64,000 bases of DNA from an uncultured Gammaproteobacteria bacterium (GCA_965230935.1 OZ246400.1:310359-374358), one strand, 5' to 3'; shown: positions 19,434-38,790, numbered from the stretch's first letter. Notes: generated by a model not told the origin, from the letters alone. Translations and numbers: made by a program.

Positions 19434-19443
19434 TTACAACACT

Positions 19444-20661: not shown

Positions 20662-20664
20662 GTC

Positions 20665-21828: not shown

Positions 21829-21831
21829 GCT

Positions 21832-22872
21832 ATGCGCCTTTTATTTATCACTCAAAAACTTGACCGTAATGATGATGTCTTAGGATATATGCATCGCTGG
21901 ACCGAAGCGATTGCGAAACGTTTTGAGCACACCATTGCACTATGTTTGCAAAAAGGTGACGTAGCTCTCCCACCCAACATCGTAGTCCATTCATTAGGTA
22001 AAGAAACAAAACCGTCACGGTGGTCGTATGTGCGCAAACTATTTTCTCTGGCGTGGCGTGAACGGAAAAACTATGATGTGGTGTTTGTGCACATGAACAT
22101 TGAATATCTTCTTTTGTGCGGCTGGTTATGGAAACTATGGGGTAAGAAGATTGTTTTGTGGTACAACCACAAAGATGGAAATCTTAAAGTAAATATTGCG
22201 CGTCTGTTTACTGATGTCGTCATGCACACTTCAGAACATGCGTACACTGCGCGATTTTCAAATCACAAACAAATGCCAGTGGGAATTGATACTGATGCAT
22301 TTGTTCCACAAGAGCAGCTACCACCGGTCAACACCATTCTCTCTATTGGAAGAATTGCCCCGGTCAAACATATCCATACGCTTATTGAGGCGGTTCAACA
22401 CCTTACCAACGAAGGTGTTAAGGTAAAACTTGATATCTACGGAAGTGCTCTTGAGCGCGACAAAGCATATGATGAACAAATCCGCGCACAATCACACGAA
22501 CTCCGAGCAAAAGGAATTGTTGAATTCCACGGATCGATTGCAAACCGACACAGCCCCCCGCTTTTTGCAAGCCATGGTATTACCGTCAATATGAGTCCCG
22601 ATGGCCTGTTCGACAAGGTAATTTCCGAAGGAATGGCTTGTGGTGGTTTGGTGCTTATCACCAACACCTCCATGAAAATTTTGCCAGAGTACTGCGTTTT
22701 TACGCTTGCTGATGCCAAAGACATGGCTGAAAAATTTAAAATACTTTTTGCACTACCTGATGAAAAACGCCGCGAACTTGGACAACAATTTCGTCAGCAC
22801 ATTATTGAAATCCACAGCCTCAAACGTGTGGTGGATGAAATTATGAATTCAGTCAACGCCTTGCAGAAATAG
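21832..22872 (+). CDS. GT4-like (GT1-fold) glycosyltransferase
   Basis: SEGMACGGLVLITN motif. N-terminal glyco_trans_4-like region. Confidence 0.5.
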   Translation: MRLLFITQKLDRNDDVLGYMHRWTEAIAKRFEHTIALCLQKGDVALPPNIVVHSLGKETKPSRWSYVRKLFSLAWRERKNYDVVFVHMNIEYLLLCGWLWKLWGKKIVLWYNHKDGNLKVNIARLFTDVVMHTSEHAYTARFSNHKQMPVGIDTDAFVPQEQLPPVNTILSIGRIAPVKHIHTLIEAVQHLTNEGVKVKLDIYGSALERDKAYDEQIRAQSHELRAKGIVEFHGSIANRHSPPLFASHGITVNMSPDGLFDKVISEGMACGGLVLITNTSMKILPEYCVFTLADAKDMAEKFKILFALPDEKRRELGQQFRQHIIEIHSLKRVVDEIMNSVNALQK

Positions 22873-23866
22873 TGGTAATTGCCTGAGCAAACGCATTATG
22901 GTTGTTGATTGGAATAATCTGCACCTGATCAGAAGGCTGAACTTCATATCCAGCAACGCCAACATCATGCATTACCACAGGGCATCCTGCTGCTAATGCT
23001 TCGAGCACGACCAATCCATATCCTTCAGTCAAGCTTGGAAATAAAAACCCGTCAGCTGATTGCATGTAGCCAACAGAGTCATCTACCCAACCCGTAAAGG
23101 TGATGTTATCTTGAAGGTTATTTTTTGCTTTTTTAACTTTTACTTCCAATGATTTACGCTGTGATCCATCACCAATAATCACTAACCCATACTCCGGATT
23201 AGTTTTCACCACTGCGGCAAATACATCAATCAACCAAGAGATGTTTTTTACTCTCTCCAATCGGCCTACCGTGATAAAAATCTTTTTCCACTTTGGAAAT
23301 TGAGTATGCAAATCAACCAATGAACGGTGCTGTGTGATCTTCTTCGTATCAAGTGCAACTGGGCGCACCACAATCTGACTGGGATCAACGCCGAGCTTGA
23401 GTACACTTTCGCGAACCCGTCCACCAACAACCCGAACGTGATCAGCACGCCGCACAATATATTTGCCCAACCAATACTGGATAAACGATCGAAGTCCGGC
23501 AAATAAATAATATGATGAGCCATAAAAATCACCATGCAACTGTACTTCGAGCGTAATCCCAAATTTCTTACACAATCCTAATCCAACCCATCCTAAAAAA
23601 AATGGATCCTGCGTACTGACCTGTGTAATCCCTTTCTCCCGAATTAACTCACGGGCACGAGCGCGTAATCGAAATAATTGGACAATCTTGTTTGCTCCTC
23701 CGGTTCCATACGCCGTCACTGATGGTGAGAGTGGTACGGTTGTTTGTTGTGGAGATGGAATCACGATGCTGAGCGTTTGTTGCGCACCATAGATACGCAT
23801 TCGCTCACTGACTGGTGAGTCAGGGTCTAAAATCTTCTGATCGATGCTAAGCATTACCTGTGACAT
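22853..23866 (-). CDS. GT4 glycosyltransferase
   Basis: TEGYGLVVLEALAAGCPVVMHD. Confidence 0.65.
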   Translation of the reverse strand: MSQVMLSIDQKILDPDSPVSERMRIYGAQQTLSIVIPSPQQTTVPLSPSVTAYGTGGANKIVQLFRLRARARELIREKGITQVSTQDPFFLGWVGLGLCKKFGITLEVQLHGDFYGSSYYLFAGLRSFIQYWLGKYIVRRADHVRVVGGRVRESVLKLGVDPSQIVVRPVALDTKKITQHRSLVDLHTQFPKWKKIFITVGRLERVKNISWLIDVFAAVVKTNPEYGLVIIGDGSQRKSLEVKVKKAKNNLQDNITFTGWVDDSVGYMQSADGFLFPSLTEGYGLVVLEALAAGCPVVMHDVGVAGYEVQPSDQVQIIPINNHNAFAQAITTISARR

Positions 23867-25005
23867 AGCTGGTCAAACAATGCGTGCATACGGGCACTAA
23901 TATGATCCCAATTGTATCGATCACGCACTAACCGCATACCAGCGGCATGTATTTCTTTTTGCTGCTCAGCTGGTACCGTGTGCGCACGAGTGATCGCTTG
24001 GGTAACTGATTGTGGATCACCAACTTTACACACAAATCCGGTCTCATTGTCTTTGAGAAAATCAGCGATTCCACCAACGGTAGTGCCAACGATCGGGAGA
24101 TGTGCTGCAATCGCTTCTAAAAATACATTGCCTAGGCCTTCGGAATGACTTGGGCGACAAAACACATCACTTGCCCACAAATATGGAGGGACCTGCGCAT
24201 GTGTTACCTCGCCCACAAAATGGATATGTTCACTCGCTGACAAAGACTGCGCGTGCTGGCGCAACACCTCTTCTAACTCTCCGGTGCCAACAATTAAAAG
24301 ATGGTACTCTTGCGGCAGATACTCCATAGCACTGATCAAATCCTTCACGCCATTTTTCACTACCAATCGCGAGACGGTAATGATCACTGGCGCATCAGTT
24401 GGAATACCAAACTGTTTGCGAATCTGTGCACGATGTTCTGGCGCATCTTTACCCGGGCGAAACTGTGCAATATCTACTCCATTAGGAATCACCGCTGAAG
24501 AAGAACCAGCAAAACTCATATCCTTTCCCCAATCCATTAAATAGGTGCTGATTGCTTGCACCCCATCAGCTTTGGTAAAAATTTTACGAAACTTTTTTGG
24601 CATAAATCGCGCCTTTTCCAAAATCTTTGGAATCGGATCTCCCTCTTGCAAGGTGAGCAAAAACGGCACCCCGGTCTTACGTTTAAAACTCAACGTAGCA
24701 AAGCCGCCATAACTCGCCATAATTGACCATGCCAAATCATAGGCATGTTTACGATGGAGCTGCATTGCCTTACGATACCCAAAAAAAGCTAACAACAGCT
24801 TGTCAAAAAAAGGAATGCCAAATCCCACACGATAAATCTGTACATTGCCAATCTTCTCTTGTTTTGGTAACGACCGCCGCAATCGCGCAGTTACCATATC
24901 AAACTGCATGTCAGTAATACGGTTGGTCACTTCTTTAACGGCAACTTCTGCCCCACCGATAAGAGGGAGATATGCAGTAGAGAAAATCAATACGCGCTTA
25001 TCCAT
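23854..25005 (-). CDS. GT4 glycosyltransferase
   Basis: SEGLGNVFLEAIAAHLPIVGTTVGG. Start at Met 25005 (MDKRVLIF) avoids a 26-nt overlap; the ORF-track start is 25044. Confidence 0.65.
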   Translation of the reverse strand: MDKRVLIFSTAYLPLIGGAEVAVKEVTNRITDMQFDMVTARLRRSLPKQEKIGNVQIYRVGFGIPFFDKLLLAFFGYRKAMQLHRKHAYDLAWSIMASYGGFATLSFKRKTGVPFLLTLQEGDPIPKILEKARFMPKKFRKIFTKADGVQAISTYLMDWGKDMSFAGSSSAVIPNGVDIAQFRPGKDAPEHRAQIRKQFGIPTDAPVIITVSRLVVKNGVKDLISAMEYLPQEYHLLIVGTGELEEVLRQHAQSLSASEHIHFVGEVTHAQVPPYLWASDVFCRPSHSEGLGNVFLEAIAAHLPIVGTTVGGIADFLKDNETGFVCKVGDPQSVTQAITRAHTVPAEQQKEIHAAGMRLVRDRYNWDHISARMHALFDQLCHR

Positions 25006-25018
25006 ATCGTTCCAATGT

Positions 25019-25960
25019 CTACATGCGTGTTTTAAACTCCTCAATTGTTTTTGCTAACCCGTCGGCAAGTGCCACTTGTGGTTCCCAATCCAAAACCTCT
25101 TTGGCTTTACTGATATCTGGCCGACGTCGCTTTGGGTCATCTTGCGGAAGTGGTTGATATACTAATTTACTTTTTGAGCCAGTAAGCGTAATCACTTCTT
25201 GTGCTAACTCTGCAATCGTATTTTCAGTTGGATTCCCAAGATTAATTGGACCCATAATCTCTGCGGGAGCATTCATCATCCGCACAAATCCATCGACCAA
25301 ATCACTCACATAACAAAAACTTCTGGTCTGCGTTCCATCACCATAAATTGTAATATCATCACCACGAAGCGCCTGAATAATAAAATTAGACACCACACGT
25401 CCATCGTCAAATGCCATTCGTGGACCGTATGTGTTAAAGATGCGCACAATTTTGACCTCCATCCCATGCATACGAAAATACTCGTAAAAAAGCGTCTCCG
25501 CCACACGCTTACCTTCGTCATAGCACGCGCGTGGTCCAATGGGATTTACCGCGCCAACATATTCTTCTGGTTGCGGATGAACCTCAGGATCACCATACAC
25601 CTCAGAAGTTGACGCTTGAAACACTCTCGCGCCATGCGAACGTGCTAATCCTAAAATATTAATCACACCAATGGTATTTGCTTTTACGGTTCGTACGGCA
25701 TTTTTTTGATAATGGATCGGTGATGCTGGGCAGGCCAAGTTGTATACCTGTTGAATCGGTTCATCAACAAAGAGCGGGTCAATGATGTCATGTTCAATAA
25801 ACATGAAATTTTCATGATCTTTAAATGAATCCAAATTGCGCTTGTCGCTGGTAAAAAAATTATCAACACCGATAACGCGATCCCCGTTGGTCAAAAGCAA
25901 CTCACACAGATGACTTCCCAAAAACCCACTTGCGCCGGTCACTAAAATTGTCTTTTTCAT
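25019..25960 (-). CDS. uxs: UDP-glucuronate decarboxylase (UDP-xylose synthase)
   Basis: [38 protein letters not shown] and [11 protein letters not shown] are a close match to the UXS family. Confidence 0.75.
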
Positions 25961-26038
25961 AACTGATTGATAGTGTATGATATATAGGCACAGTACACCA
26001 TATTTACAGCATTTTGTAAACTCAAATTAGGTAATAAA

Positions 26039-27205
26039 ATGGCTAAAACTAGGAATAAAAAAACTATTGGACTGGTAATTACCCAAGGGAAATGGGGAGG
26101 TGCCCAACGGTATGTATTTGATCTGGCGACCCATCTTGCGACTCGCTATCGAGTTGTAGTAAGCATTGGTACACAACATGGATCACAGACACTCCAAAAT
26201 CGTTTACATGATTTTGTACAATCACACCCAACTGTTGATATTACCGTTACCCTATTAAATCATCTGCAACGAGCAATTAATCCATGGCATGATCTACGTG
26301 CCATTACTGAATTGCGCCAATGGGTGGCTACGAACCATATTGATCTTGTGCATTATAACAGTAGTAAGGCGGTAGTTATTGGTGCACATGCAAGTCGCGG
26401 CACGATTCCACAAATTGCCACGATCCATGGGTGGCCGTCACAAGAACTACTCTCGCCAATGCGTTCGTGGCTATATCGATTACTTGAAAAACGAGCAAGT
26501 CGCGCACTCGATGCACTGATCACGATTGACTTAACGTCGTCACGTATTGCTCAAGACAAGTATGGGCTTCCAAAGAAAAAGGTACACCACATCGCACACA
26601 GGATTGCACCTATTGATTTTCTGCCGCGCGATGACGCCAGGGAACAATTTGAACAACTCACTGGCCAATCATTATCCAACAAATATTGTGTCGGTACGAT
26701 TGCCAATCATTATCCAACAAAGCGTCTTTCCTTATTTATTGATGGACTCGCACAATTTATCACGCAAAAGAAGGATATTGTCGGATTGATTATTGGTGAT
26801 GGACCACAGCGCCACGCGTTACAACAACAGATTAATACGCTGAACATGCAAGACCACATCTTTTTACTTGGTCATCAAGATAATGCCGCGCGCCTCCTTA
26901 AAGGATTTGATCTGTTTGCGTTAAGTTCTGCTAAAGAAGGGTATCCGTATGTGCTCCTTGAAGCACAGCAAGCCGAACTTCCAATCGTAAGCACGGCAGT
27001 TGGTGGATGTATCGACATTCTCCAAAATTCTCCAACTGGCTTTTTAGTTGATACTCCAATCCCTGAAGTATTTGCTCACACGCTAGCGCAAGCACGTGTG
27101 CAACATACCTACCCAACAAAAACCCTCAACACACCACCACAACAGGCACTAGACTCCATGATTGAGCAAACTACCACACTCTACGAATCTTTCTTAGCGT
27201 CCTGA
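26039..27205 (+). CDS. GT4 glycosyltransferase
   Basis: KEGYPYVLLEAQQAELPIVSTAVGG. Confidence 0.65.
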   Translation: MAKTRNKKTIGLVITQGKWGGAQRYVFDLATHLATRYRVVVSIGTQHGSQTLQNRLHDFVQSHPTVDITVTLLNHLQRAINPWHDLRAITELRQWVATNHIDLVHYNSSKAVVIGAHASRGTIPQIATIHGWPSQELLSPMRSWLYRLLEKRASRALDALITIDLTSSRIAQDKYGLPKKKVHHIAHRIAPIDFLPRDDAREQFEQLTGQSLSNKYCVGTIANHYPTKRLSLFIDGLAQFITQKKDIVGLIIGDGPQRHALQQQINTLNMQDHIFLLGHQDNAARLLKGFDLFALSSAKEGYPYVLLEAQQAELPIVSTAVGGCIDILQNSPTGFLVDTPIPEVFAHTLAQARVQHTYPTKTLNTPPQQALDSMIEQTTTLYESFLAS

Positions 27206-29262
27206 TATTGTTGCGCAAGTTCTTCCTCCCCTGCATTGCGTAATGTTTCGATAATCAGATCGGCAATAGGCCAACGTGGCGGCAAAAATTCACCAAGATC
27301 GTATTGCACTGCTTCACGAAATGCTGCTACTGCTTGTTCTGGCTGCTCGGCAGCAATATACATCGTTCCCAAACGCCAGTGCACTTCTGCAATTTGCGGG
27401 TAATCATCAATTACTTTTTGTAATACTTGTTCAGCTTGCCCAAACTGATTTAACAACAGATGTGCTTGTGCCAACTCAAATCCAAGCTGCTGTCGTTTTG
27501 GCGATAGTTCCAATGCTTTTTTAAGCGCCGCCTGTGCTTGGAGTAATAATTCCGGAGTATTGGTATGCAATCCTGATTGTTGTGCCATTTGCGCAAGCAC
27601 CAAATACATCCGAAGTTCAAACGGCATGACATCAATGACGGTTTTCATGTCAGTGATTGCCAGGGGATAAAAAATATCATGCCACGCACCTATCACTTCT
27701 GGTTGTCGGGTATTGATGACTTGTGCAACGGCACGAGAATACTCACGAACAATATCATCAAAGTGCGGACTGCCAATCGATTTCGCTTCTTCGTACACCC
27801 GCAATGAATCAGCATATTGACCATTGTGGAGAAGCCCGATACCAAGTCGTAGCGCTTTATTTGCTGAAGAGACTTTTCCCACATATTGCTGCGTCAGCAA
27901 TGTGGCAAGCACTAATACAATCACACCAGCAATCGCCTGATTTTTCCACGGCGCTCGCGCTGGCTGTACTGGCTCATCTGATCGATTACTCAACTGGTCA
28001 ATCATGGCCAATACAACAAAGAAGTATAAGTATGACGTGGTATTTTCAAAAACAAACAAATTATGAACAAACGTAGCGACCAGAAACACTTGTGTACCAA
28101 TGGCCACATACCATAATTCTGGATGCCGTCTCCGCAGTCGCTGTGCCCCATACAACCCCGCGATAAACAACAACAGATACGCAACAGCGCCAATTACCCC
28201 CTGTGTAGTCAAAGTATTTACGAGCACATTATGTGCATTATCAAACCACGTTTCCGAAATTCCAAAACGGAAAAATTCCGGATTGTATCCTTGGTTGAAT
28301 GCATAAAAAAATGTATTGATTCCCCAACCAACGATTGGGTGCTCCTTCCAGGTCTCATAAGCAATCTGCCACGCCATAACCCGAGTACGACCAGTACCTT
28401 CAGTAAATGAGATGTGGGTAAATCGACTCAGGAATGGGTTCTCTGTAATTACTGATTGATTTCGCAATCCAAAAATTGTACCGCCGGCCAGCACTAATAC
28501 CCCAAACCCGACCAACGCAATCTTACGCCAACGCGCTGAACATTCTTTTGCTACTCCCACAAGGAGCAGCAGTAATACACCGCCAATTGCAAATCCTAAC
28601 CATGAGCCTCGAGTTTGGGTAAAAATAAGAGTGAGTAATGATCCAAACGCGCCAAGTGCCCAAAGCAGTCGCCACCACCATTGCCGCTTTTCAAACAAAA
28701 GTACGGCGCTGACAAAAAACAAAAAGATACTATATCCGGCAACATAAATGGTGTTGCCGAGTGTCGAACGTACCCGATTGCTTCCTTGATTCAGTAAAAA
28801 CTGCGGATCGGCAACTTGGATCCACGCAATAACCATCACTGGAATGGCCGCAACAAAAAACCATCCCAAAAGCCATCGCCACTCACGCCATCCAACAAAT
28901 ACTTGACGCGCCACATAAAATAAAATTGCGTAATGGAACATGGTATACAGACCCAACATGCGCTCATGATTGTCCCACAAACTCCGCTGCACATCGACAC
29001 TAAAGAGCGTCGAAAGTGTCAGCGAGATAAAAAAGAGCGCAACACTCAACCCAATCAAACTCACTCGCGACCGTATCTCTTTCCAATACCCAGCAAGAAA
29101 CATCACCCACACCACAGCTATCAACGCAACTATCACACGCAAATACAATACTTTAGGAACAATAAACGGAAAGATGTAGGAATCAAGTCCTACAAACAAC
29201 GGCATGAGAAACGCAAGCCCCACGAGCGCTTGCAATATACGACGATAATGATGAAACTTCAT
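27181..29262 (-). CDS. O-antigen ligase/polymerase-like (Wzy_C) membrane protein fused to C-terminal TPR repeats
   Basis: About 12 TM helices. Wzy_C-like central loop (TQTRGSWLGF ... DNAHNVLVNTLTTQGVIG). The C-terminal about 250 aa are TPR-like helical repeats. Confidence 0.6.
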   Translation of the reverse strand: MKFHHYRRILQALVGLAFLMPLFVGLDSYIFPFIVPKVLYLRVIVALIAVVWVMFLAGYWKEIRSRVSLIGLSVALFFISLTLSTLFSVDVQRSLWDNHERMLGLYTMFHYAILFYVARQVFVGWREWRWLLGWFFVAAIPVMVIAWIQVADPQFLLNQGSNRVRSTLGNTIYVAGYSIFLFFVSAVLLFEKRQWWWRLLWALGAFGSLLTLIFTQTRGSWLGFAIGGVLLLLLVGVAKECSARWRKIALVGFGVLVLAGGTIFGLRNQSVITENPFLSRFTHISFTEGTGRTRVMAWQIAYETWKEHPIVGWGINTFFYAFNQGYNPEFFRFGISETWFDNAHNVLVNTLTTQGVIGAVAYLLLFIAGLYGAQRLRRRHPELWYVAIGTQVFLVATFVHNLFVFENTTSYLYFFVVLAMIDQLSNRSDEPVQPARAPWKNQAIAGVIVLVLATLLTQQYVGKVSSANKALRLGIGLLHNGQYADSLRVYEEAKSIGSPHFDDIVREYSRAVAQVINTRQPEVIGAWHDIFYPLAITDMKTVIDVMPFELRMYLVLAQMAQQSGLHTNTPELLLQAQAALKKALELSPKRQQLGFELAQAHLLLNQFGQAEQVLQKVIDDYPQIAEVHWRLGTMYIAAEQPEQAVAAFREAVQYDLGEFLPPRWPIADLIIETLRNAGEEELAQQYQDAKKDS

Positions 29263-29265
29263 AAA

Positions 29266-31515
29266 CTACTCTTGATCTAATGTTTGTAAAAACTTTTCTC
29301 CTTCAATACGAAAAGTTGGATCTAACTCAATTGCCTTGCGTGTTGCGTTGCGCGAATCGTCAATACGACCAAGCGCTGCATATACTGCCCCCAAGCGAGC
29401 ATACCACGTTGCAAACCAACTTGGCTCTTCGGTCTCTGGTGGCTTGGTCACGACATATTCATAAAACTGTGCAAGTCCCGCTAAATCATCCGCATCAACA
29501 TAGCGCTGCGCAACAAGTTCATACTGACTCGAATTTTCAAAGTTATATCCCAATCGCATAACCTCACCGATCTGCGCCAATCCTTGTTGGAGAGTTGCAT
29601 CATCCTGCAATAACACAAACGCATAATACCAACGCACCAGACCAGAATTGGGTGTACGTTCTACTAACGATTGCGCAAGGGGAAGCGCTTTATCAAATTG
29701 CTGGCTAAACAAATATGCTTGAACAAGCAACAATCCCCCTTCGTCTTTTTGCGAGCTAAATTCAATCAGCTCATTAAACAACTCTTCGGCCCGCAAAAAA
29801 TACTCTGACTCTTTGCTACCCACAGCGAGCTGATAATAATATTTGCCGAGAAATGACTTTACTAAATAAGAACCTGGATGGCGGACGTATACCTGCTCTC
29901 CACGCTCAGCAAATTGCACAATATCTTCTCGCCACATACGACGAATGTGCTCAGGAAGTCCAACTTCACTCTGGTTTTCTGTTTGTTCGTATACCACTGC
30001 CGCAACTGCCCCAGCACCCCAGCGCCAGCGTTCAAAATCATAAGGCGTGTACCAATCAAATGCCCGGTTCAGCTCAGCACGTGCAGAAGTCCAATCATTA
30101 ATATAAGAATATTGCAAACCATTATTCGTAATAAGGGACGAAACCATAGCAGACACACTAAAGCGCCACATGACAACGAGCAATATCAATACACTCCCCC
30201 ATCCAATCATCTGCGCAGTGGTGGACGAAACTCGACGAGGTTCGGGTGTTGGTTGAATCTCTCGCGCCAAAAATATAACAAGTGCAACTATTGTCGTAAT
30301 CGTTAAGTATGTTGCCGCGGTATCAAACAAAAAGAAATTTTGTACACCATAGCCAGCAGCAATAGCATATACGGTTCCGGCCTGGTTGGCACTCAGCGCC
30401 CCTTCTTTGCGCAATCGTAGAACCAAACGCCACAATATAATCACTACAAATACAAAGGCAAGCCCGCCGACGATTCCGGTAGTGGCCAACACCTCCACAT
30501 ACATATTGTGTGGCTTATCAACAAACGTTTCAACATAGGCAACTTCAGTCAGTCGATTATCATAATGCCGATCAAGGATCGTCCGATAATTTTCAGGACC
30601 CCAACCCAGTAACGGACGAGCAGTAAAACCAGTCAACGCCACTGACCAGTTAATCGCGCGTGTTTTCAACGTGCTGGTACTAAGCACATCAGCATAGGAT
30701 GAATTGGCGACAATTGGCGCATCACGATAGACCCAACCTACTGATACCACCAGCACTCCAAGTATTGCCGCACCAATAAGTGTTCGTCGAATCCATCGTG
30801 GCGCTCCAGCAGTAACACCACGATAAAAAAGATATACAGCCATACCCACTACTAGCCCCAACAATGCACCACGTGGTCGAGCAAGAATCATTGCTACTAA
30901 CAAGATGAGTACTGCGATTACCAACCCGATCTTCTTCCACCGCGTTTGTACATACGTCAACAACCAAGGAGCAAGGAGAATATGCAAAGCAATATACCCA
31001 CCCAAAAATACTGGATTACCAAGAGTGCTTGCAATACGATTTGCAGAAAAGTTTGGCAAAAAGTTTGGAATAGCAAATTGAATAAACCCCAAAATCGATA
31101 CTACAACAGCAGTGCCAAAACTGATCATGATAAGACGGTTCCATTGTTCACGATCAACAATACCGCTTCCAAAAATCAGCACGAACAACAATAAGTGCGC
31201 TTGAAAAAACAGACCAGTAGAGCGTGCCATATCTGCCCACATGCTTTGATGGAGATTAACCCCAACCAAAGCACTGATGATATTCACGACAAACAATCCG
31301 ATAATAGACCACACCACCAATGACTTTCGCGGACGAGTTTGTGGCTCTTTGAGCCAAACCCATATCGCCAAGAGTGTGGCAATTCCCATTATCGTCTGCA
31401 AATACACTGCTTTTGGAAAGGAGATTGGAAACAAAGACCATTGCACATATACAAGCGGCACTCCGACAATCGCCGCGACACCGAGCCAATAAATTGTTTT
31501 CTTGATGAGCTGCAT
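29266..31515 (-). CDS. O-antigen ligase/polymerase-like (Wzy_C) membrane protein with C-terminal TPR repeats (paralog 2)
   Basis: Same architecture (RPRGALLGL ... DKPHNMYVEVLATTGIVG, then a TPR tail). Start at Met 31515 (MQLIKK); the ORF-track start 31602 overlaps the upstream paralog. Confidence 0.6.
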   Translation of the reverse strand: MQLIKKTIYWLGVAAIVGVPLVYVQWSLFPISFPKAVYLQTIMGIATLLAIWVWLKEPQTRPRKSLVVWSIIGLFVVNIISALVGVNLHQSMWADMARSTGLFFQAHLLLFVLIFGSGIVDREQWNRLIMISFGTAVVVSILGFIQFAIPNFLPNFSANRIASTLGNPVFLGGYIALHILLAPWLLTYVQTRWKKIGLVIAVLILLVAMILARPRGALLGLVVGMAVYLFYRGVTAGAPRWIRRTLIGAAILGVLVVSVGWVYRDAPIVANSSYADVLSTSTLKTRAINWSVALTGFTARPLLGWGPENYRTILDRHYDNRLTEVAYVETFVDKPHNMYVEVLATTGIVGGLAFVFVVIILWRLVLRLRKEGALSANQAGTVYAIAAGYGVQNFFLFDTAATYLTITTIVALVIFLAREIQPTPEPRRVSSTTAQMIGWGSVLILLVVMWRFSVSAMVSSLITNNGLQYSYINDWTSARAELNRAFDWYTPYDFERWRWGAGAVAAVVYEQTENQSEVGLPEHIRRMWREDIVQFAERGEQVYVRHPGSYLVKSFLGKYYYQLAVGSKESEYFLRAEELFNELIEFSSQKDEGGLLLVQAYLFSQQFDKALPLAQSLVERTPNSGLVRWYYAFVLLQDDATLQQGLAQIGEVMRLGYNFENSSQYELVAQRYVDADDLAGLAQFYEYVVTKPPETEEPSWFATWYARLGAVYAALGRIDDSRNATRKAIELDPTFRIEGEKFLQTLDQE

Positions 31516-31522
31516 ACTGGAG

Positions 31523-33559
31523 TTATTTTCGTGCTTCAATGAGAATGCGTAATCCCAAATCTTTCGCTTGTTGTTCCAATTCTTGCGCTCGCTGCTCGTC
31601 ACCAGACAAACTGTAGAGCATTCCTAAAAACCAATAGGTTCTGGCAATAGATGGGAACTCTTCTATGCGCTTTTCAAGCAGCGCGATTCCACTATCTACA
31701 TCACCAACAGATGCATAAGTCGAGGCAAGCGCATATGAGACATATAAATGATTCGGGGATAGTTGTTCAGCGTGCTTGTACGCATCAAAGGCGAGCGCAT
31801 ACCAATCAGGATGAGCGATTTCTCCAAGATTTTCATACATCTGTCCTAACAAATAAGTTCGTGTAAATATAGTGTAATCACGAGTACATCGCTGCGAATC
31901 TTCAAGAAGTTCACGAGCGACTTGCATTTGCAAATCAGCACTAATCGTTCCTGACTCACTTGCTTGTAACCACGTAAACAACTGTCGAGACCACCAATCG
32001 CACCCGTACCCATAGCTGATTGTTTTTTGATTTTGGTTGATATCCTCTTGCCAAGAAAACCACTGCCGCCCGTCAATCGCCAAACGCGCCTGCCGATGTC
32101 CATAGAGTTGATGAGCCACCAAACTTGTATATCCCACAGCTACAAGCAGAACAAGAACACCAATGACCTGTAAACCAATACGACGGGTATTTCTCAATCC
32201 TATCTTAGTTGAGCGCTCAGAAGAACGGGTAAGTGTGTGACTAAACGCCCACCCGTACAATATCCAAAAGAATAGATGGACACTTATGTGTTCGATACTA
32301 AATATACCGTACACTCCATACGCAATTATCCCACCAATCAAGATTACCCATTGCCAATCAGTGTGCATTGGCCGATCAACTGCTCGAAGCTTGCGCAAAC
32401 CAAACCACACCAACACTCCAAATAACGCTAAGTAGAGCAAAGCGCCAATAAGTCCAGATTCAACAAAAGCAGTAAGATAAAAATTATGCGCATCATCAAT
32501 AAAAATATCAGTAAGTGCCACCTGATCAATAGTGGGATCGAAATACTTTGCAAAAATATGAGGGTATGCTGCTTTTCCCCATCCAGTAAATGGTCGCTCT
32601 ACAATACCCTCCCAAGCACTTTGCCAAAAAACTAAACGCGTCTGCGAAGTTGTAGCCTGAAAATCAAGACGTACCCCCCGCGGTAATTGAACGATTGTTT
32701 GTGGAATAAATTGAACAACTACATATAACAATACTACCAACACACCGATCCATATACTTATCTTTGTTCCTCGAGTAAGTTCCATCTGCTCCACACGACG
32801 CAAACGCATACGATGCCAGATCAATACCACACCCATTGCCACCACACCTAAAATTAACCCAAGAATCGCAGCTCGAGAAGATGAGAGTAGTAGTGAGTAT
32901 ACTATCAGCACACCGACTACACCATGTGCCCCATACCACCACAATTGCTTATTCTTTGATACACTCGTAGTCTGAGACGTTGGGATGTGCACTCCACTTA
33001 TTCCAAGGAGCACTAAGTGCATTAATAAATATCCGGTATAAAATATTGGATTACCAATAGTCACTCCAAAATGAGCAGTAAGAACGTCCGGGAAAAATCC
33101 CACCACATGCACCCCAATAATATTCATCACACTCAATACTGTGGCAACGATCAATGAAAAACGCATTACACGTATCCATTGCTCGCGTGTATGCAGCACA
33201 AATGGCAAAAGCAAACCTACCATTACCAAATGCGCCACAACCCAAACACCATTACCGCGCAACAATGTTCCCCAAATACTTTCTGTTGGATTGACCCCCA
33301 CGACACTGGTAATAATCACCACTACTACATACCCAAGCGCGATTAGGATAAAAGGATTCAAATACCATTTCTTTGATAGACAAATTGCTGGAGTATTCCC
33401 CCTCTTTTTCAACATACTCCGAATTAGCACTCCTAATCCCACCAACTCAATCAATAACAACGCAATAATAATTTTAATACTCACATTGGTCTCCCCAAAT
33501 CCCACCAACACCAACAATGGCGTGAGTGTTAATAAGTACACAAAAATTGATAAACGCAT
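31523..33559 (-). CDS. O-antigen ligase/polymerase-like (Wzy_C) membrane protein with C-terminal TPR repeats (paralog 3)
   Basis: Same architecture (SSSRAAILGL ... DDAHNFYLTAFVESGLIG, then a TPR tail). Confidence 0.6.
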   Translation of the reverse strand: MRLSIFVYLLTLTPLLVLVGFGETNVSIKIIIALLLIELVGLGVLIRSMLKKRGNTPAICLSKKWYLNPFILIALGYVVVVIITSVVGVNPTESIWGTLLRGNGVWVVAHLVMVGLLLPFVLHTREQWIRVMRFSLIVATVLSVMNIIGVHVVGFFPDVLTAHFGVTIGNPIFYTGYLLMHLVLLGISGVHIPTSQTTSVSKNKQLWWYGAHGVVGVLIVYSLLLSSSRAAILGLILGVVAMGVVLIWHRMRLRRVEQMELTRGTKISIWIGVLVVLLYVVVQFIPQTIVQLPRGVRLDFQATTSQTRLVFWQSAWEGIVERPFTGWGKAAYPHIFAKYFDPTIDQVALTDIFIDDAHNFYLTAFVESGLIGALLYLALFGVLVWFGLRKLRAVDRPMHTDWQWVILIGGIIAYGVYGIFSIEHISVHLFFWILYGWAFSHTLTRSSERSTKIGLRNTRRIGLQVIGVLVLLVAVGYTSLVAHQLYGHRQARLAIDGRQWFSWQEDINQNQKTISYGYGCDWWSRQLFTWLQASESGTISADLQMQVARELLEDSQRCTRDYTIFTRTYLLGQMYENLGEIAHPDWYALAFDAYKHAEQLSPNHLYVSYALASTYASVGDVDSGIALLEKRIEEFPSIARTYWFLGMLYSLSGDEQRAQELEQQAKDLGLRILIEARK

Positions 33560-33695
33560 AATAATTCAGCTAAAATCACGTTTATTAGCCCTCTTACTAT
33601 ACCTCAGACACATTGAAAAGCAAAACTCTCCCCTTTCGGGGAGAGTTTGCTATCCAATACCAGTTAAGACCAATACTGGAGACGCTTGCCTACGA

Positions 33696-36600
33696 TTAGT
33701 AGGTAAGAGTCTTACCTGAGAATGGAAGTCCGCCCACTCCAGATGAGGTTGGCTTCAGATCATAGATCTCGCCAGTGTAGCCATCAGACCACACAATACC
33801 TTGTTGAACGGTACCACCAGCATTTGGCTGGAGAACCAATCCAAGAGTCAAGGTTTCGTTTGCGTCAGCATCGTCAGTATCAAGGGTAACGATAATTGTC
33901 TCGTCTTGACCTGATTCGATAGTAACGTTGGTGAAGTTGGCTGCAGTAATAGCAGTGTTGTCGTTTGCCAAACCAATTGCACCAGCGGTGAAGCTGTCTT
34001 CATATGAAGTACCAGATGCAGTGTTCAAGATGTTCGCTGCACTGATGTTCTTCTTATATACCTTCAATTCACGGTCGTTAGATCCTCCAGCTGCTTGTGA
34101 GATAGAGGTGTCCAACTTGAAGTTCAAGAGCTTCAAGGTGATTTCTTGGTTGTTAGCGTTAGACGCGTTGCTTAATACCCACTTCGCAATGGTTTGATCA
34201 TCACCCTTGGAGACTGATCCACTTGGTGCGTCACTTGCGTGAGCAATAGAGAGAACTGCCTTAAGTGGGTGCATGGTATTACCATTGAGGTCATTACCTG
34301 CTGCAGCTGCAAACACTTGTTCGTCAATACCGGTTGGGGTAATTGAAGTACCTGAGTTTGCACCACGACTGACAAGACTGTCAGTGTCGCTTGTGTCGTA
34401 GTCGTTGATCAACGTTGCAATGAAGGTTGAACTTGAGAGGCTGTCTGGCTGTGATGTGATATCTGCCATCAACTTCAAGGTCTTACTACTATTACGTGGA
34501 ATGATCAATGACAAGTTGCTGAACTTAGCGTATGCAGTAGATGATGCTTTAGCACCAGCGGTTACGTTTGTAGTATCAAGAGATGCTACAGCTTGACCAA
34601 CTTGGCTATCACCATCCATCAAACGCAAGTTACCAACAACACCGGTAACTGCAGTAGAACCAGTAACTGATGCGATGATTGCTGTCAATTCAGTAATCTT
34701 TACATCTTCTGGCTTACCAGCACTAAACTTCCAACGGACAAGCTCTTGATCAGCAGCTCCCATTGCCATGTAGTGCTCGTTTGGTGTGTCAGCAGAGATT
34801 GCTGCTTCAAGACTTCCAGATACCGCAATGAAGAGGTTCTGAAGACCTGCAGACATGCTTGCTGTACCACTTTGACCGGTCTCTAAGGTTTGATAGGTGA
34901 CTGAAGATGGATATACAACACCATCAGTGTCACTTACCGTACCAAGGTCGGTAGAAGTTGTACTCTTGATGTCAGCAACAATATCAACGGTGTATTGCTC
35001 ACCCTTTGCCAACTCAATTGCGTTGGTCAAGGTGTAGTCAAAGGTATCGGTATCACCAGTGGTGAGGGTACCTTTAGCTGGAGCAATATCTTCTCCGTTG
35101 TGACGCAATCGCATGTTGATGAAACCACCTGCAAGACCGTCATTACCAGTATCGTCAACTTCTGCCTTCAAGGTAATGTTGGTGATCTTACTTCCTTCAC
35201 CTGAACCTGCCTTAATCACGAAAGAGCTAACTGTTACGTACTTCGCGTTAAGAACAGCGGTTGGGTTAGTAGTTTCTGCACCGTCAGCCAATGTGGTGTT
35301 CTCTACCAAGGTAGGGGTACCACTTGAAACTGTAACGGTATGCGCTGCGGTTTGTGATGTACTGATTGAGGTCAATGAGGTCTTACCTTGTGCATTACTT
35401 GAACCTGCTTCCAGACGTGCGAACAAGGTGTTTCCTGAATCAATACCACTACCAGTGGTATCAACATATGCCTCAAGCACACTTGACTCACCTGCTTTTA
35501 CAACAAAGTTGTTTGAGAAGGTAAAGTCTGCATCGATAGTAGAACCGATGGTTGCGTGAGCAGTAGAACTAGCAACAGTAGTACCCACTTGAGTACCGTC
35601 GAGCAAGATCTTTGCGTTCTTGATCACGTTGTTGCTGTCTCCTGAACCAAATCCAACACTCAAGCTGGTCAACTTCACGTCTTCGCCAGATGCGGTCAAA
35701 TCCCACTTACCAAGCAATACGTTTGAAGCACCATCAGGAATGTCGTCAGTTGGTGAATCATCTGCTACCTGAATGGTCAAAGAACCAGTGTTGATTGTGG
35801 TTTGTGCAGTGGTTTCTACAGTAAATGCTGTAGTGTTGTCACTCACAACCGGTGCGTATACACCATATTCTTTCTCCCAAACGCGAACATCTTCGTCGTT
35901 TTGGATGCTGAATTGGAACGTACGGTTAGTTCCGGCAGCAATTTCACCACGGATGTCCAAGAACTTGGACTGACCTGAGGTGATTGCCAAACCACCATCT
36001 GCATGACCAGTGAAGTCGAACATGAGTTCATCGTCACCAAGATCTGCGTGAGTAGCACCAAACTGCTCACCAGCTACCTCAAGACTAATGTTCTTCAAGT
36101 CTTTTGAATCAACACTTCCGATCTGAGTGAATGTTACACTCTTCACAAGAATGTCTTGGTCAACTGCGTCGAACTTGAATTTACCAAGTTCTTTTTCTTC
36201 ACCAACTTTTGCGTCTACAGTTGTAGCACTTGTTGGAGAACTGGTTGCGATTTCAAGGTAACCCAAGTCAGATACTTGAGCCACGGTCATGTTTGCACCA
36301 GCTGCTGAACCAGATACAGAACCGGTACCTTCCAAAGTAGCACCAGTGATTTTTACACCAATAGTACCACCGTTGGTTGCGCTCTTGTTTACGTCAAGGC
36401 GTACCCATACTGGCATAGTGCCAGATACGGTAAAGTTGTCGGTCCACTCAATTACTCCTTCGGAGATTGAGTTGGTCTTTGCAAGGATAGTATCACCGTC
36501 CATGAGGTATACCTCATCAACGTCACCGTCCTTTGAAATACCAGTCAACTCACCAGCAACAGTGTCAACTTCTACGTCGCCACCATTTGCAGTGAAGTCA

Positions 36601-37454
36601 GCAAGCAACATTGGTGCCATACGTTGACCCAAGGTTGAACCTGACGTGTTGTCAGTTACCACTGAATCAGCGTCTGGTGAACCAGATGCTACGCTGATGC
36701 TCAAGTTTCCACCTGAAGTTGGTACTGGAGGAGTAACTTCAGCACCGGTTTGTGCGGTGTCTGAGAGTTCAAACTCACCCAATGCGTCACCTGCTTCTAC
36801 TGAAGCAAGATCTGCTTCCCATACATGAACGCTCATGAAGCCGTTTCCAGCCATTGCTGCGCTGTCAACCATTCGCTTCTTGCCGTCTTCCATGTAGTAG
36901 TAGTCATCACCGTCTTTGACGTATGAACCATCAGGCAATCCGTCAGCAGAGGTGAGATCTTCACCAATAGTGTAGTTAGGGAAGAATCCGTCTGGGATAT
37001 CTACCAATCGACCAGAAAGCCAGTTTTCGCCATAAAGAGCGTCACCGTCTTCACCAGTCTTCACCCAACGAAGGACACCACCAGGAGTGATGGCATATAC
37101 CTTTTCGTCTGAGGTGATTTTTCCAAACCAAGTTCCTGGTCGCAAGGTAATATTATCAACCAAAGGTACTGCAGCAAGGCTATCAGCACTTACAGTTGTA
37201 ATTGATGGTGAATCAAAGTCACCGTACCATGACAGGAAAGTAGCTGAGTTTGGGAACACATACCGTCCACCATCTTGTACATAGTAGACAGTCGTGAGAT
37301 CAGCACGCTTGTAGAGCTTACCGTCCTCAAGAGCTTCAGCCGCATTTGCGGTCAGACTTCCTGCGATTGCAGAAAAGCCAACTGCCCAGAGAATAGTAGC
37401 AACAACGGTTACGTACGTAACTGCGCGCTTACTCATTGTTAATACATTACTCAT
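33696..37454 (-). CDS. giant secreted/surface protein (about 1250 aa) with N-terminal signal/anchor, three about 40-aa N-terminal repeats and a long Ser/Thr/Gly/Asp-rich beta-rich repeat region (S-layer or adhesin-like)
   Basis: Start at Met 37454 (MSNVLTMSKRAV...), preceded by an AAAGGA SD. Hydrophobic segment VTYVTVVATILWAVGFSAIAGSLTANA. Repeats DGGRYVFPNSATFLSWYG / TPGGVLRWVKTGEDG / DGSYVKDGDDYYYMEDG. Remaining sequence is low-complexity and repetitive, with a C-terminal ...LPFSGKTLTY. Confidence 0.55.
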   Translation of the reverse strand: MSNVLTMSKRAVTYVTVVATILWAVGFSAIAGSLTANAAEALEDGKLYKRADLTTVYYVQDGGRYVFPNSATFLSWYGDFDSPSITTVSADSLAAVPLVDNITLRPGTWFGKITSDEKVYAITPGGVLRWVKTGEDGDALYGENWLSGRLVDIPDGFFPNYTIGEDLTSADGLPDGSYVKDGDDYYYMEDGKKRMVDSAAMAGNGFMSVHVWEADLASVEAGDALGEFELSDTAQTGAEVTPPVPTSGGNLSISVASGSPDADSVVTDNTSGSTLGQRMAPMLLADFTANGGDVEVDTVAGELTGISKDGDVDEVYLMDGDTILAKTNSISEGVIEWTDNFTVSGTMPVWVRLDVNKSATNGGTIGVKITGATLEGTGSVSGSAAGANMTVAQVSDLGYLEIATSSPTSATTVDAKVGEEKELGKFKFDAVDQDILVKSVTFTQIGSVDSKDLKNISLEVAGEQFGATHADLGDDELMFDFTGHADGGLAITSGQSKFLDIRGEIAAGTNRTFQFSIQNDEDVRVWEKEYGVYAPVVSDNTTAFTVETTAQTTINTGSLTIQVADDSPTDDIPDGASNVLLGKWDLTASGEDVKLTSLSVGFGSGDSNNVIKNAKILLDGTQVGTTVASSTAHATIGSTIDADFTFSNNFVVKAGESSVLEAYVDTTGSGIDSGNTLFARLEAGSSNAQGKTSLTSISTSQTAAHTVTVSSGTPTLVENTTLADGAETTNPTAVLNAKYVTVSSFVIKAGSGEGSKITNITLKAEVDDTGNDGLAGGFINMRLRHNGEDIAPAKGTLTTGDTDTFDYTLTNAIELAKGEQYTVDIVADIKSTTSTDLGTVSDTDGVVYPSSVTYQTLETGQSGTASMSAGLQNLFIAVSGSLEAAISADTPNEHYMAMGAADQELVRWKFSAGKPEDVKITELTAIIASVTGSTAVTGVVGNLRLMDGDSQVGQAVASLDTTNVTAGAKASSTAYAKFSNLSLIIPRNSSKTLKLMADITSQPDSLSSSTFIATLINDYDTSDTDSLVSRGANSGTSITPTGIDEQVFAAAAGNDLNGNTMHPLKAVLSIAHASDAPSGSVSKGDDQTIAKWVLSNASNANNQEITLKLLNFKLDTSISQAAGGSNDRELKVYKKNISAANILNTASGTSYEDSFTAGAIGLANDNTAITAANFTNVTIESGQDETIIVTLDTDDADANETLTLGLVLQPNAGGTVQQGIVWSDGYTGEIYDLKPTSSGVGGLPFSGKTLTY

Positions 37455-37602
37455 AGATAAGTTTCCTTTCTTGTTAATTTTTTTGACTATGCTACCCCCT
37501 TTGGGTCGACCTTTCAGCCGCATAGTATTGTGTCTCCCTCAATCATTTATATAGAGATACACATGTATCGTCACAACGTGCATGACGACGACATCTATAT
37601 CA

Positions 37603-38790
37603 CTACTCCTGTGAATCCTGATTACCAGTAGTGTGCGTTACATTTTCCTCTTGTACTTGCAGGCCACCCGGAACAAATACCTGCTCTGTGCTTGCTTTGG
37701 CTGCCACTTGACCAACTTCAACCGCTCGTGATTGCACATCATTGCTGAGTGGCGCCGCTCCATTTACTTTTTCAAGAACCTCATCAAACGCTTCATCCTC
37801 TAAGAGCTCTTTTGCGCTTTTGAGGACATTTTTAACCTCGTCAGACTTGGAAACAACTTCTTCTTGCGCTGGATCAATCACTTCAACATGCCCCACCTCT
37901 AATCCGCCAGGAATATTTTCAAGTGATTCAACAGCATCTTGTACATCTTGCTGCGCGCCTTCAACTGTAGATTCGATACGTTGAATCTGTTTGTCAATCA
38001 CCTCTTTAACGTCTTCAACAGACACGACATCCTCTCCTGCTGCCAATGACTCTACATACACTTCTACGGTTTTGGTCTCAGTTGCTGCTGCAGCCTCAAC
38101 TGCATCACGAACAATGTAGGTTACCTCTTCGGGAATCATGGTGTTATCAACCAATGTTTCATGAGTCTCATCCAAAATCTCTGCAACATCCTCGGAAACT
38201 TCTTCAACTGCTTGTGCCAAATCAATCACCTCTTCTCCTTGTAATGTGTCGAGCGCCTCTTGAACTTGTGCAGCACTGTCTTTAAACCGCTCAACAGTCT
38301 TCTGCACTCGTGTTGCTGCAGTAGTGTCGTCTTGATCAATAGTTGCTAAAATTTGTTTTACCTCTTGTAAACGACGGGTGGCATGCTCGGCTTGGAGTTT
38401 CTTCTTCGCAACTTCTCCTTGAGTAAGTCCAACCACAACCTCAGTTGTTTTTTCAATACTTAATTTTACAAAATACCCTGCATCACCTTCTGTACTATTA
38501 CTGGTTGCAAATACACCAGTAATCCAACTCCCTGTTGCCAACCCAAAAACCAACACTACCATTACCACTGGACGCACCACTGCATATACCGTGTGATTTG
38601 GAACAATAATAGCAAGCACCTCCCACAACCGAGCAAATGAGAACCAGCGGGTCTTAGGAAGTGAGGTTGAATGCTCTAGGCTTGACAACAGATTTTTTCG
38701 AGTTTGATGCACAAAATCCGCCCGTGGGGTGATATTCCCACGCACGTCAGCTAATGTGTGTAAATGTGTTTTAAGATCTTTACGATCCAT
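37603..38790 (-). CDS. anti-sigma factor-like membrane protein (DUF5667-like architecture)
   Basis: Immediately downstream of the ECF sigma gene with a 3-nt gap. Short cytoplasmic N-terminus, one TM helix (VVMVVLVFGLATGSWITGVFA), then an acidic helical extracytoplasmic domain. Confidence 0.5.
   Translation of the reverse strand: MDRKDLKTHLHTLADVRGNITPRADFVHQTRKNLLSSLEHSTSLPKTRWFSFARLWEVLAIIVPNHTVYAVVRPVVMVVLVFGLATGSWITGVFATSNSTEGDAGYFVKLSIEKTTEVVVGLTQGEVAKKKLQAEHATRRLQEVKQILATIDQDDTTAATRVQKTVERFKDSAAQVQEALDTLQGEEVIDLAQAVEEVSEDVAEILDETHETLVDNTMIPEEVTYIVRDAVEAAAATETKTVEVYVESLAAGEDVVSVEDVKEVIDKQIQRIESTVEGAQQDVQDAVESLENIPGGLEVGHVEVIDPAQEEVVSKSDEVKNVLKSAKELLEDEAFDEVLEKVNGAAPLSNDVQSRAVEVGQVAAKASTEQVFVPGGLQVQEENVTHTTGNQDSQE

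Follow-up and report, generated by a model that had tools for sequence, protein, structure and literature searches.

Tandem Wzy_C-TPR genes in a conserved cassette with a giant secreted protein of Magasanikbacteria-like Patescibacteria: candidate protein O-oligosaccharyltransferases

Three tandem Wzy_C genes and their predicted fold

We analysed a stretch of 64,000 nucleotides (GCA_965230935.1, OZ246400.1:310359-374358; hereafter the window) deposited under the title of an uncultured Gammaproteobacteria bacterium, which carries three consecutive genes (A, B, and C) for polytopic proteins with a Wzy_C core of the O-antigen ligase type and a C-terminal tetratricopeptide repeat (TPR) region, and a more distant relative (D) elsewhere. 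A sequence-only reading of the window had described these four genes and missed the conserved cassette whose tail is formed by the three tandem ones, in the minus-strand order extracytoplasmic function (ECF) sigma factor, DUF5667 protein, giant protein, hairpin, C, B, and A, and this cassette provides a concrete acceptor candidate. The features concerned are as follows.

27181..29262, minus strand: paralog A, 693 aa, Wzy_C core and C-terminal TPR-like solenoid
29266..31515, minus strand: paralog B, 749 aa when read from Met30, in an open frame that reaches back to a GTG at 31602
31523..33559, minus strand: paralog C, 678 aa, Wzy_C core and short TPR tail
33623..33648, minus strand: terminator-like hairpin between the giant-protein gene and C (11-bp stem, GAAA loop, T-run)
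33696..37454, minus strand: giant secreted protein of about 1252 aa if the ATG at 37454 is taken as start, or 1275 aa in the longest open reading frame (ORF), which reaches 37523
37486..37526, minus strand: structured RNA-like element, in which, by folding, an outer stem encloses an unpaired GAAAGGUCGA and an inner hairpin
37603..38790, minus strand: DUF5667 single-pass membrane protein (Pfam DUF5667, E=6.6e-6; one transmembrane (TM) segment)
38794..39360, minus strand: ECF-type sigma-70 factor at the cassette head (Pfam Sigma70_r2, r4_2, and ECF)
49922..51424, minus strand: protein D, 500 aa, Wzy_C without TPR

All four ORFs were recovered on the minus strand where they had been placed, and each contains the expected Wzy_C core (PF04932), with scores of 64.9 (A), 60.2 (B), 81.2 (C), and 49.0 bits (D) that all exceed the value of 31.7 bits curated by Pfam as the gathering threshold. 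The proposed fusion to TPRs is clear for A, in which TPR_2, TPR_19, TPR_16, TPR_8, and TPR_14 all pass their Pfam cut-offs, and for B (TPR_2, 33 vs 27 bits; TPR_14, 28 vs 23.5 bits), whereas all Pfam TPR matches of C are sub-threshold and its tail was recognized through the similarity of residues 575-671 to solved consensus-TPR proteins in PDB (phmmer, E=1.7e-17). No TPR was found in D by the Pfam scan. The tails had been described as uniformly about 250 aa long, but they measure about 231 aa in A, 286 aa in B (the longest), and 192 aa in C. The lengths of 678-778 aa given for the three proteins also need revision although the ORFs exist: for C, a length of 653 aa was obtained in an independent gene call, and the start of B is most likely Met30 (31515), where both the gene call in an independent assembly (749 aa) and the alignment of orthologs begin; this leaves intergenic gaps of 7 nt (C-B) and 3 nt (B-A).

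Pairwise BLASTP comparisons revealed 25% identity over 622 aa between A and B (E=2e-44), 24% over 603 aa between A and C (E=2e-24), and 28% over 305 aa between B and C (E=7e-27), whereas similarity to D was weak for C (E=1.5e-4) and not significant for A (E=0.063). Thus, A, B, and C are true but old paralogs, as had been claimed, and D, which had been counted as a fourth copy, has the TPR-less Wzy_C architecture ascribed to it but is only a distant family member that lies outside the paralog group and whose operon, a separate one, also contains two GT4 genes and a gene for a GHL15/FG-GAP protein. Based on sequence and modelling, A, B, and C are predicted membrane glycan transferases of the WaaL/PglL (Wzy_C) superfamily.

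Among the paralogs, A was modelled with AlphaFold2 (AF2) using 50 homologs (predicted local distance difference test score (pLDDT) 91.8; predicted template-modelling score (pTM) 0.90). The model contains nine TM helices, an 80-residue loop (266-345), and three further TM helices, which together form a 12-TM core, followed by a 13th TM helix (approximately 441-479) and an all-alpha paired-helix solenoid (483-692). The top Foldseek match is the O-antigen ligase WaaL (7TPG, 7tpg_B; E=1e-6, target-normalised TM-score 0.68 over 452 columns), and the next ranks are occupied by TPR superhelices, including those of OGT and SPINDLY. Across 50 family members, Lys and Arg residues number 17.3 per 74 aa in short predicted cytoplasmic loops vs 4.5 per 75 aa in short external ones; this positive-inside bias puts the N-terminus inside and both the catalytic loop and the TPR domain outside, and hence supports, at the level of a model, an extracellular TPR domain beside the catalytic loop, a placement that the sequence-only reading had left to topology prediction.

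The putative active site is strongly conserved. In the alignment, R218, R294, and H344 are invariant across A, B, C, D, and their relatives (76-77 of 77 A-type genes and all 19 extra copies), and so are G169-N170, P309, G312, and G314. The spacing of the Arg/Arg/His triad agrees with that in Escherichia coli WaaL and in PglL, where the catalytic equivalents are R215/R288/H338 and R224/R298/H349, respectively (PMC3643930). The membrane core of A found no match in PDB sequences in a single-sequence phmmer search, and a core-only profile of 10 sequences was needed to reach these enzymes, with the entry 9RMK ('Oligosaccharyltransferase'; E=3.2e-12, 49.2 bits, 305 positions) and WaaL 7TPG (E=5.5e-12, 48.4 bits, 214 positions) being retrieved. 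We found no paper describing 9RMK in the open literature; we identify it as PglL by its residue numbering, because nine published PglL residue numbers fit exactly. The residues reported as PglL-specific are G316, G318, H400, E404, and P406. The PxxGxG motif (P309, G312, G314) is invariant in the family, and PglL E404-x-P406 aligns with E406-x-P408, with a conserved His nearby. Among the A-type genes, E406 is present in 72/77 and P408 in 64/77 (A of the window has T408), and the His occupies position 397 in the majority of A-type proteins but position 400 in the clade of the window, such that its alignment needs a 2-residue gap. This His is absent from B, C, and D, and position 406 is Asp in B, Glu in C, and neither in D. 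The E-x-P/His pattern of the A family resembles the PglL-specific motif, the match being inexact.

Orthologs, copy number, and synteny in related genomes

Homologs of A are found by the hundred as Wzy_C plus TPR proteins of 660-700 aa, and the named ones are annotated as 'O-antigen ligase family protein' or 'tetratricopeptide repeat protein' of Patescibacteria/Candidatus Magasanikbacteria. At E<=1e-30, a full-length profile matched the representatives of 4,809 clusters (50% identity), and the best matches span both core and TPR; the Wzy_C-TPR architecture is therefore common and already generically annotated. When GTDB species representatives were scanned, relatives of A were detected in 206 species genomes. 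Nearly all of the 80 loci that were fetched are titled Magasanikbacteria or Patescibacteria, and many others 'uncultured Gammaproteobacteria'. On sequence evidence, the host is a Magasanikbacteria-like member of Patescibacteria (the candidate phyla radiation, CPR), an ultra-small organism whose nearest named relatives are Candidatus Magasanikbacteria. Many metagenome-assembled genomes (MAGs) with the Patescibacteria-specific cassette (among L007-L086) likewise bear the title 'uncultured Gammaproteobacteria bacterium', which is probably a placeholder and not a taxonomic assignment because such titles appear to come from one bulk MAG submission.

By sequence comparison, A is the ortholog of a very common and widespread single-copy Wzy_C-TPR gene, with 36-44% identity (BLAST) to the position-1 genes of relatives. 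Three tandem Wzy_C genes were also observed in four other species (loci L007-L010) in the same order, C-B-A, with one-to-one orthology, although the contig of L010 stops before any giant gene could be visible. B is 34-40% identical to the middle genes (37% to the middle gene of another locus, L002), and C is 29-32% identical to the first genes (31% to the first Wzy_C gene of L002). A relative with an A ortholog of only 44% identity also possesses the cassette with three Wzy_C genes. In more distant relatives, either one Wzy_C-TPR gene completes the cassette or the upstream position is taken by a different, large LTD-domain protein. A neighbor-joining (NJ) tree, calculated without bootstrap, reproduced the A/B/C grouping, with extra copies on long branches, and C, with only 10 database matches, is the most divergent and the rarest of the three. 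These comparisons indicate that A is the conserved, ancestral gene and that B and C are old extra copies, lineage-restricted and faster-evolving. In one of the four species, the C-type gene (L007:5851-7781) is split into ORFs of 221 and 431 aa, which may reflect a frameshift or a pseudogene and hints that the third copy is dispensable. In two-copy loci, the extra copy has an identity of 23-30% with both A and B, and of 21-27% with C; we tried to assign it to the B or the C orthogroup, and neither these identities nor the NJ tree without bootstrap allowed an assignment.

The A-type proteins differ from the extra copies in their predicted external surfaces. All 77 share an invariant or near-invariant external motif in loop 3 (W96-D-N-H-E-R101, WDNHER), and the same degree of conservation applies to N468, P499-H500, D503 (SPHxDD), and R551 of the C-terminal domain and to S587-P-x-R-Q-Q592 (SPKRQQ) and R630 of the TPR region. 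In the 19 extra copies, the catalytic residues are kept and most of these A motifs are replaced, a pattern that points to a conserved ligand for A and a changed specificity for B and C and that does not fit simple decay. B and C probably work with another glycan than A or modify sites of another class.

Hidden Markov models (HMMs) built from the cassette proteins were scanned over the 80 species loci, 51 of which have at least 8 kb of upstream sequence. Among these 51, the A-type gene is preceded on its own strand by a member of the giant-protein family in 34, and DUF5667 is present upstream in 32 and the sigma factor in 29; a further 3 have an unrelated N-anchored protein of 1,155-1,296 aa directly upstream, which makes 37/51 in all. 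Copy number does vary across genomes, from one to three Wzy_C copies per locus. Extra Wzy_C ORFs upstream of the A-type gene were counted in the 41 loci with a giant protein (none in 26, one in 11, two in 3, and three in 1), so that extra copies occur in 15/41 loci with a giant protein vs 0/17 without. The single count of three comes from L007 and results from its split C-type gene, and the two extra ORFs of L023 (348 and 480 aa) overlap and may represent one split gene. In 33 of 37 related loci, the giant gene is likewise followed by a strong, GC-rich hairpin with a T-run (dG from -17 to -30 kcal/mol), which is conserved in position but has unrelated stem sequences among loci; judging from sequence, it looks like a terminator or an attenuator.

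Regarding the head of the cassette, position and topology suggest that the DUF5667 protein is an anti-sigma factor. Upstream of the ECF sigma genes, GTGTAACA and CGTCTTC k-mers are enriched (TGTAAC in 17/27 and CGTCTTC in 10/27 loci), the corresponding region of the window being approximately 39360-39620 on the minus strand. These k-mers resemble -35/-10 elements of the ECF type, which suggests autoregulation.

The giant secreted protein, its leader RNA, and the surrounding glycan genes

The giant protein has a signal peptide, a pI of 4.3, no Cys, and 21% Ser plus Thr (values for the 1275-aa ORF translation). This longest ORF probably starts too early, and the true start is probably the ATG at 37454, because the leader RNA element overlaps the upstream ATG (first 23 codons); in addition, orthologs align from residue 24 and the ATG at 37454 is preceded by an AAGGA ribosome-binding site. 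No Pfam or NCBIfam model matched the protein even at E<=10, and its 24 homologs, whose named sources are Patescibacteria, are all unnamed or called 'hypothetical protein'. An AF2 model of residues 62-1261 (pLDDT 80, pTM 0.44) displays an N-terminal alpha/beta module, a disordered linker rich in Thr, Pro, Ser, and Gly, and about ten Ig-like beta-sandwich domains connected by Ala/Gly/Thr/Ser-rich linkers. Foldseek returned generic Ig-domain arrays such as that of the adhesin PrgB and no specific surface-layer (S-layer) protein. The N-terminal 125 residues or so are the most conserved part, and the module itself (residues about 65-186; window approximately 36966-37331, minus strand) comprises about 120 aa in three beta-beta-beta-alpha units and has no Pfam match. 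The same module, at 42-45% identity, recurs at the C-terminus of an otherwise unrelated Thr-rich giant protein of 1,066 aa (L002:15450-18650). The module may serve both proteins in wall anchoring or in assembly.

The leader of the giant-protein gene contains an element that we consider, from comparative sequence analysis, a candidate new structured RNA. The element carries a AAGGUCGA bulge; in the family as a whole, the outer stem and the inner hairpin are variable, and the unpaired (A/U)A(A/G)GUCGA that the outer stem encloses is conserved. This architecture was present in the minimum free energy (MFE) folds of 24/27 loci. A MAFFT alignment fell into two registers and yielded no consensus structure; therefore, an anchored subset and a covariance model were used instead. 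The model gave 16 matches at E<0.001 in 1.47 Mb, all in giant-gene leaders, and examples from related loci are listed below.

L040:1764-1813: leader RNA
L062:3762-3811: leader RNA
L085:4243-4292: leader RNA

In the resulting alignment, the proportion of paired cells is 93.6% (63% in shuffles), compensatory changes occur in 11 of the 12 pairs, and the observed score was reached by 0/500 shuffles, values that refer to an alignment fitted to the covariance model, which favours structure. Inspection and folding revealed the copy of the window, whereas the model did not detect it at E<=1; for this element, no Rfam family scored at the gathering level in the window or in three related loci.

The sequence-only reading had counted about 10 GT4 genes together with a Wzx and a Wzz; we found nine genes of the GT4 type and sugar-nucleotide enzymes in the surrounding 60 kb as well as a Wzx-like flippase, but for Wzz only a sub-threshold candidate. 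The other features of the window are given below.

5132..27205: glycan-precursor and assembly genes (Pfam scans), namely a GT47-like gene, methyltransferases, an RGP-like glycosyltransferase (GT), GT2, epimerases/dehydratases, a DegT aminotransferase, and six GT4 genes
6938-8215, minus strand: Wzx-like flippase (Polysacc_synt, Pfam)
11180-12769, minus strand: membrane protein with weak GT-C/PMT_2 similarity (Pfam)
16346-18258, plus strand: split transketolase pair (N-terminal half; pyrimidine-binding/C-terminal half) among sugar-nucleotide genes
51634-53649, minus strand: Cys-rich lipoprotein-like protein of 671 aa with Dicty_CTDC repeats
57433..58089, minus strand: small two-TM protein of 218 aa with sub-threshold matches to Wzz (N-terminal, E=0.045) and GNVR (C-terminal, E=0.002)
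61962-62350, plus strand: tmRNA gene (Rfam RF00023, 124.7 bits, full-length)

The small two-TM protein is a possible polysaccharide co-polymerase. A split transketolase is also found next to a Wzy_C-TPR gene in a distant relative (L006:14898-16561), which suggests a conserved role in making an unusual sugar. Beyond D lies an island of 6 kb (approximately 51600-58000) with a GC content of 0.58-0.63 vs 0.44 elsewhere and spurious ORFs in all frames, which was probably acquired horizontally. Besides the Cys-rich lipoprotein-like protein, which matched no database record under the ORF boundaries used, the island encodes a secreted protein of 400 aa with 24 Cys and one of 416 aa with 7 Cys. Three contigs carry D; the island is present in the one examined by gene table, and the other two were reported as similar.

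Function of the Wzy_C-TPR proteins and comparison with known systems

The explanation that we favour, with a confidence somewhat short of an even chance, is that A, B, and C are dedicated protein O-oligosaccharyltransferases (O-OTases) that glycosylate the adjacent giant surface protein. The GT4-rich locus would build an oligosaccharide on a polyprenyl-diphosphate carrier, the Wzx-like protein would flip it to the outside, and the Wzy_C core would transfer it at the Arg218/Arg294/His344 site of the external loop, on the outer face of a single cytoplasmic membrane. The extracytoplasmic TPR solenoid would select the acceptor, most likely the giant Ig-domain protein encoded immediately upstream, and the outcome would be O-glycosylation of a surface, possibly S-layer-like, protein; donor, acceptor, and any division of labour between A, B, and C are the predicted parts of this scheme. 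A Wzy_C domain and a C-terminal TPR motif are combined in WsfB and PglL, and WsaB has a separate TPR partner, WsaA (PMC2943079). Moreover, genes of dedicated O-OTases usually adjoin the gene of their acceptor (PMC3643930, PMC12645811). A CPR genome without lipid A/lipopolysaccharide (LPS) genes has been reported (PMC5220378), a monoderm wall has been described in rare CPR organisms (PMC8871954), and no lipid A/core genes were seen in the scanned 64-kb window. Considering that no LPS acceptor is expected in the lineage, O-glycosylation of the adjacent giant protein is the best-supported model, membership of A, B, and C in the lipid A-core WaaL ligases is unlikely, and the earlier view that lipid A-core is not the acceptor agrees with the description of the lineage.

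Several observations weigh against protein glycosylation. A strong and conserved terminator separates the giant gene from the Wzy_C genes, so co-transcription cannot be assumed, and in 14 of the 51 species the A-type gene has no adjacent giant protein. PglL and WaaL received equal profile scores, which means that sequence cannot separate an oligosaccharyltransferase (OTase) from a ligase here, in agreement with the report that the two are inseparable by simple sequence similarity (PMC3643930). PglL_A (PF15864) and Wzy_C_2 (PF11846), which co-occur with Wzy_C in OTases of the PglL/PglS type (PMC3643930, PMC12645811), were not detected by Pfam in A-D even at E<=1. No initiating phosphoglycosyltransferase was found by Pfam among the window ORFs scanned, and the giant protein has no known O-glycosylation sequon in excess, the Bacteroidetes-type D[ST][AILVMT] occurring 10 times vs 9.9 expected. 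In addition, TPR domains bind non-protein ligands as well. The terminator, the 14 loci, the missing Pfam domains of PglL, and the absence of a phosphoglycosyltransferase are the reasons why our confidence in O-glycosylation stays below one half.

A bolder version, which we regard as possible but doubtful, is that the giant protein is the major S-layer-like glycoprotein of Magasanikbacteria, that the Wzy_C-TPR genes are its dedicated O-OTases, and that the cassette, with its sigma factor, DUF5667 anti-sigma factor, leader RNA, giant protein, and terminator, is a regulated surface-coat module. If so, the transferases triplicated in the clade of the window, with their different external specificity surfaces, would provide one protein with different glycans or glycosylation sites, a compact system for glycan diversification in a genome of about 0.9 Mb.

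The strongest competitor, although in our view unlikely, is that the proteins are WaaL-like ligases that join the flipped glycan to something other than protein, either a glycolipid of the membrane or a secondary polymer linked to the wall. In that case, the giant protein would be adjacent because its N-terminal module binds the polymer, as S-layer anchoring domains do, and the TPR domain would hold the polymer or a partner enzyme. Consistent with this, the best solved structural match is WaaL, the profile scores of WaaL and PglL are equal, the conserved and recurring N-terminal module looks as a wall-anchoring domain is expected to look, and a terminator between the genes fits a functional link without enzyme-substrate coupling. 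However, the canonical acceptor is missing in a group without lipid A/LPS genes (PMC5220378), and the TPR motif of such enzymes is described as a mediator of protein-protein interaction (PMC2943079). The tracking of the giant protein by extra copies is expected under both O-glycosylation and ligation and does not discriminate between them, and the sequence-only proposal of ligation to different acceptors is compatible with the data.

It is less probable still that the proteins are Wzy-type polymerases, each paralog polymerising its own repeat unit from the large GT4 locus with the TPR region as a chain-length or export adaptor. The Wzx-like flippase, the many glycosyltransferases, and the sub-threshold Wzz/GNVR protein would suit such a role, and the Pfam Wzy_C family includes true polymerases. 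B also has a weak match to TIGR04370, the NCBIfam repeat-unit polymerase model (E=3e-4), but at 19.8 bits it is far under the cut-off of 40 bits, and A, C, and D have no match to this model at all. Furthermore, the closest proteins of known structure, in sequence as well as in fold, are a ligase and an oligosaccharyltransferase, most related species have a single copy that is tied to the giant gene and not to a variable glycosyltransferase content, and the TPR-less D in its GT4 operon is a more natural candidate for a polymerase or a second ligase. The several distinct repeat-unit polymers that had been suggested from the presence of multiple paralogs thus have less support, with neither a polymerase-model match nor a Wzz above threshold.

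Alternatively, B and C might be duplicates in decay or without catalytic activity, such as subunits with a regulatory or scaffolding role in a complex centred on A, which we consider quite improbable. Loss of the WDNHER, SPHxDD, and SPKRQQ motifs of A, the small number of C relatives, the split gene of L007, and the long branches in the NJ tree would be expected in that case. However, R218, R294, D341, H344, G312, and G314 are kept in all 19 extra copies, and full-length orthologs of B and C retain their order where the A orthologs are only about 44% identical, which implies long-term purifying selection across distant genomes. Finally, it is very improbable that the proteins are IctB-like transporters instead of glycan enzymes, because the weak matches of A (E=7e-13) and D (E=8e-6) to the NCBIfam IctB equivalog model TIGR00947 reach at best 48.3 bits vs a cut-off of 366 and reflect the shared Wzy_C fold, while the catalytic residues of the ligases are retained and the genes lie within a glycan locus.

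The CPR/Patescibacteria cell envelope is still described as unclear (PMC5220378), and we found no study that ties a Wzy_C or O-antigen-ligase gene to a specific function in these bacteria; a survey of cyanobacterial exopolysaccharide (EPS) genes does not discuss Wzy_C-TPR fusions either. The domain fusion and its link to surface-protein glycosylation are already known from Firmicutes and Neisseria, whereas the conserved Magasanikbacteria cassette, the strict association of extra copies with the giant protein, the tandem array of three orthogroups, and the leader RNA appear to be undescribed, no study of them having turned up in our literature searches. Ultra-small and probably epibiotic cells meet their hosts via the surface, and if O-glycosylation holds, the cassette names a candidate surface glycoprotein, its transferase or transferases, and its regulators (the ECF sigma/anti-sigma pair and the leader RNA). 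The presence of one, two, or three enzyme copies across species would be a natural experiment on the diversification of transferase specificity, and O-OTases with new acceptor rules are of practical interest for glycoconjugates (PMC12800693, PMC9829042). If the proposal is wrong, the three genes represent an ordinary expansion of a very common, generically annotated family.

Compared with known enzymes, A shares with WaaL of Cupriavidus metallidurans (7TPG/7TPJ) the 12-TM core, the external catalytic loop, and the Arg/Arg/His triad, but WaaL has neither the 13th TM helix nor the TPR domain, and its acceptor, lipid A-core, should not exist in this lineage. PglL of Neisseria (9RMK) is the best profile match and has in common the Arg/Arg/His triad, PxxGxG, and a reported C-terminal TPR motif (PMC2943079), with a similar but inexactly matching E-x-P motif after TM11; on the other hand, identity is very low, PglL_A and Wzy_C_2 are absent from A-D, and PglL acts in a diderm periplasm on many protein substrates and is not encoded beside its main substrate. 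TfpO/PilO, PglS, and TfpM are likewise Wzy_C enzymes encoded beside a single protein substrate, but these substrates are small type IV pilins of diderms and a TPR tail is not reported (PMC3643930, PMC12645811). OGT and SPINDLY also have a TPR superhelix fused to a glycosyltransferase, and the TPR region of the A model matches theirs structurally. The eukaryotic TMTC O-mannosyltransferases combine a polytopic membrane core with luminal TPRs, and in all of these enzymes the TPRs recruit the protein acceptor. The catalytic folds and donors of OGT, SPINDLY, and TMTC are unrelated to those considered here, and the likeness is one of analogy only.

WsfB of Paenibacillus alvei and WsaB/WsaA of Geobacillus stearothermophilus are predicted O-OTases of S-layer proteins, and resemble the present proteins in their monoderm hosts, in the Wzy_C core, and in a TPR domain that is fused (WsfB) or encoded next door (PMC2943079). 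They were described with slg clusters and the S-layer precursor genes sgsE and spaA (PMC2943079). Compared by description, the Magasanikbacteria-like system differs in that its putative acceptor, an Ig-domain protein that matches no Pfam model, is unrelated and not established as an S-layer protein, that its cassette is headed by an ECF sigma factor and a DUF5667 protein, and that it comprises up to three tandem enzymes where WsfB and WsaB are single.

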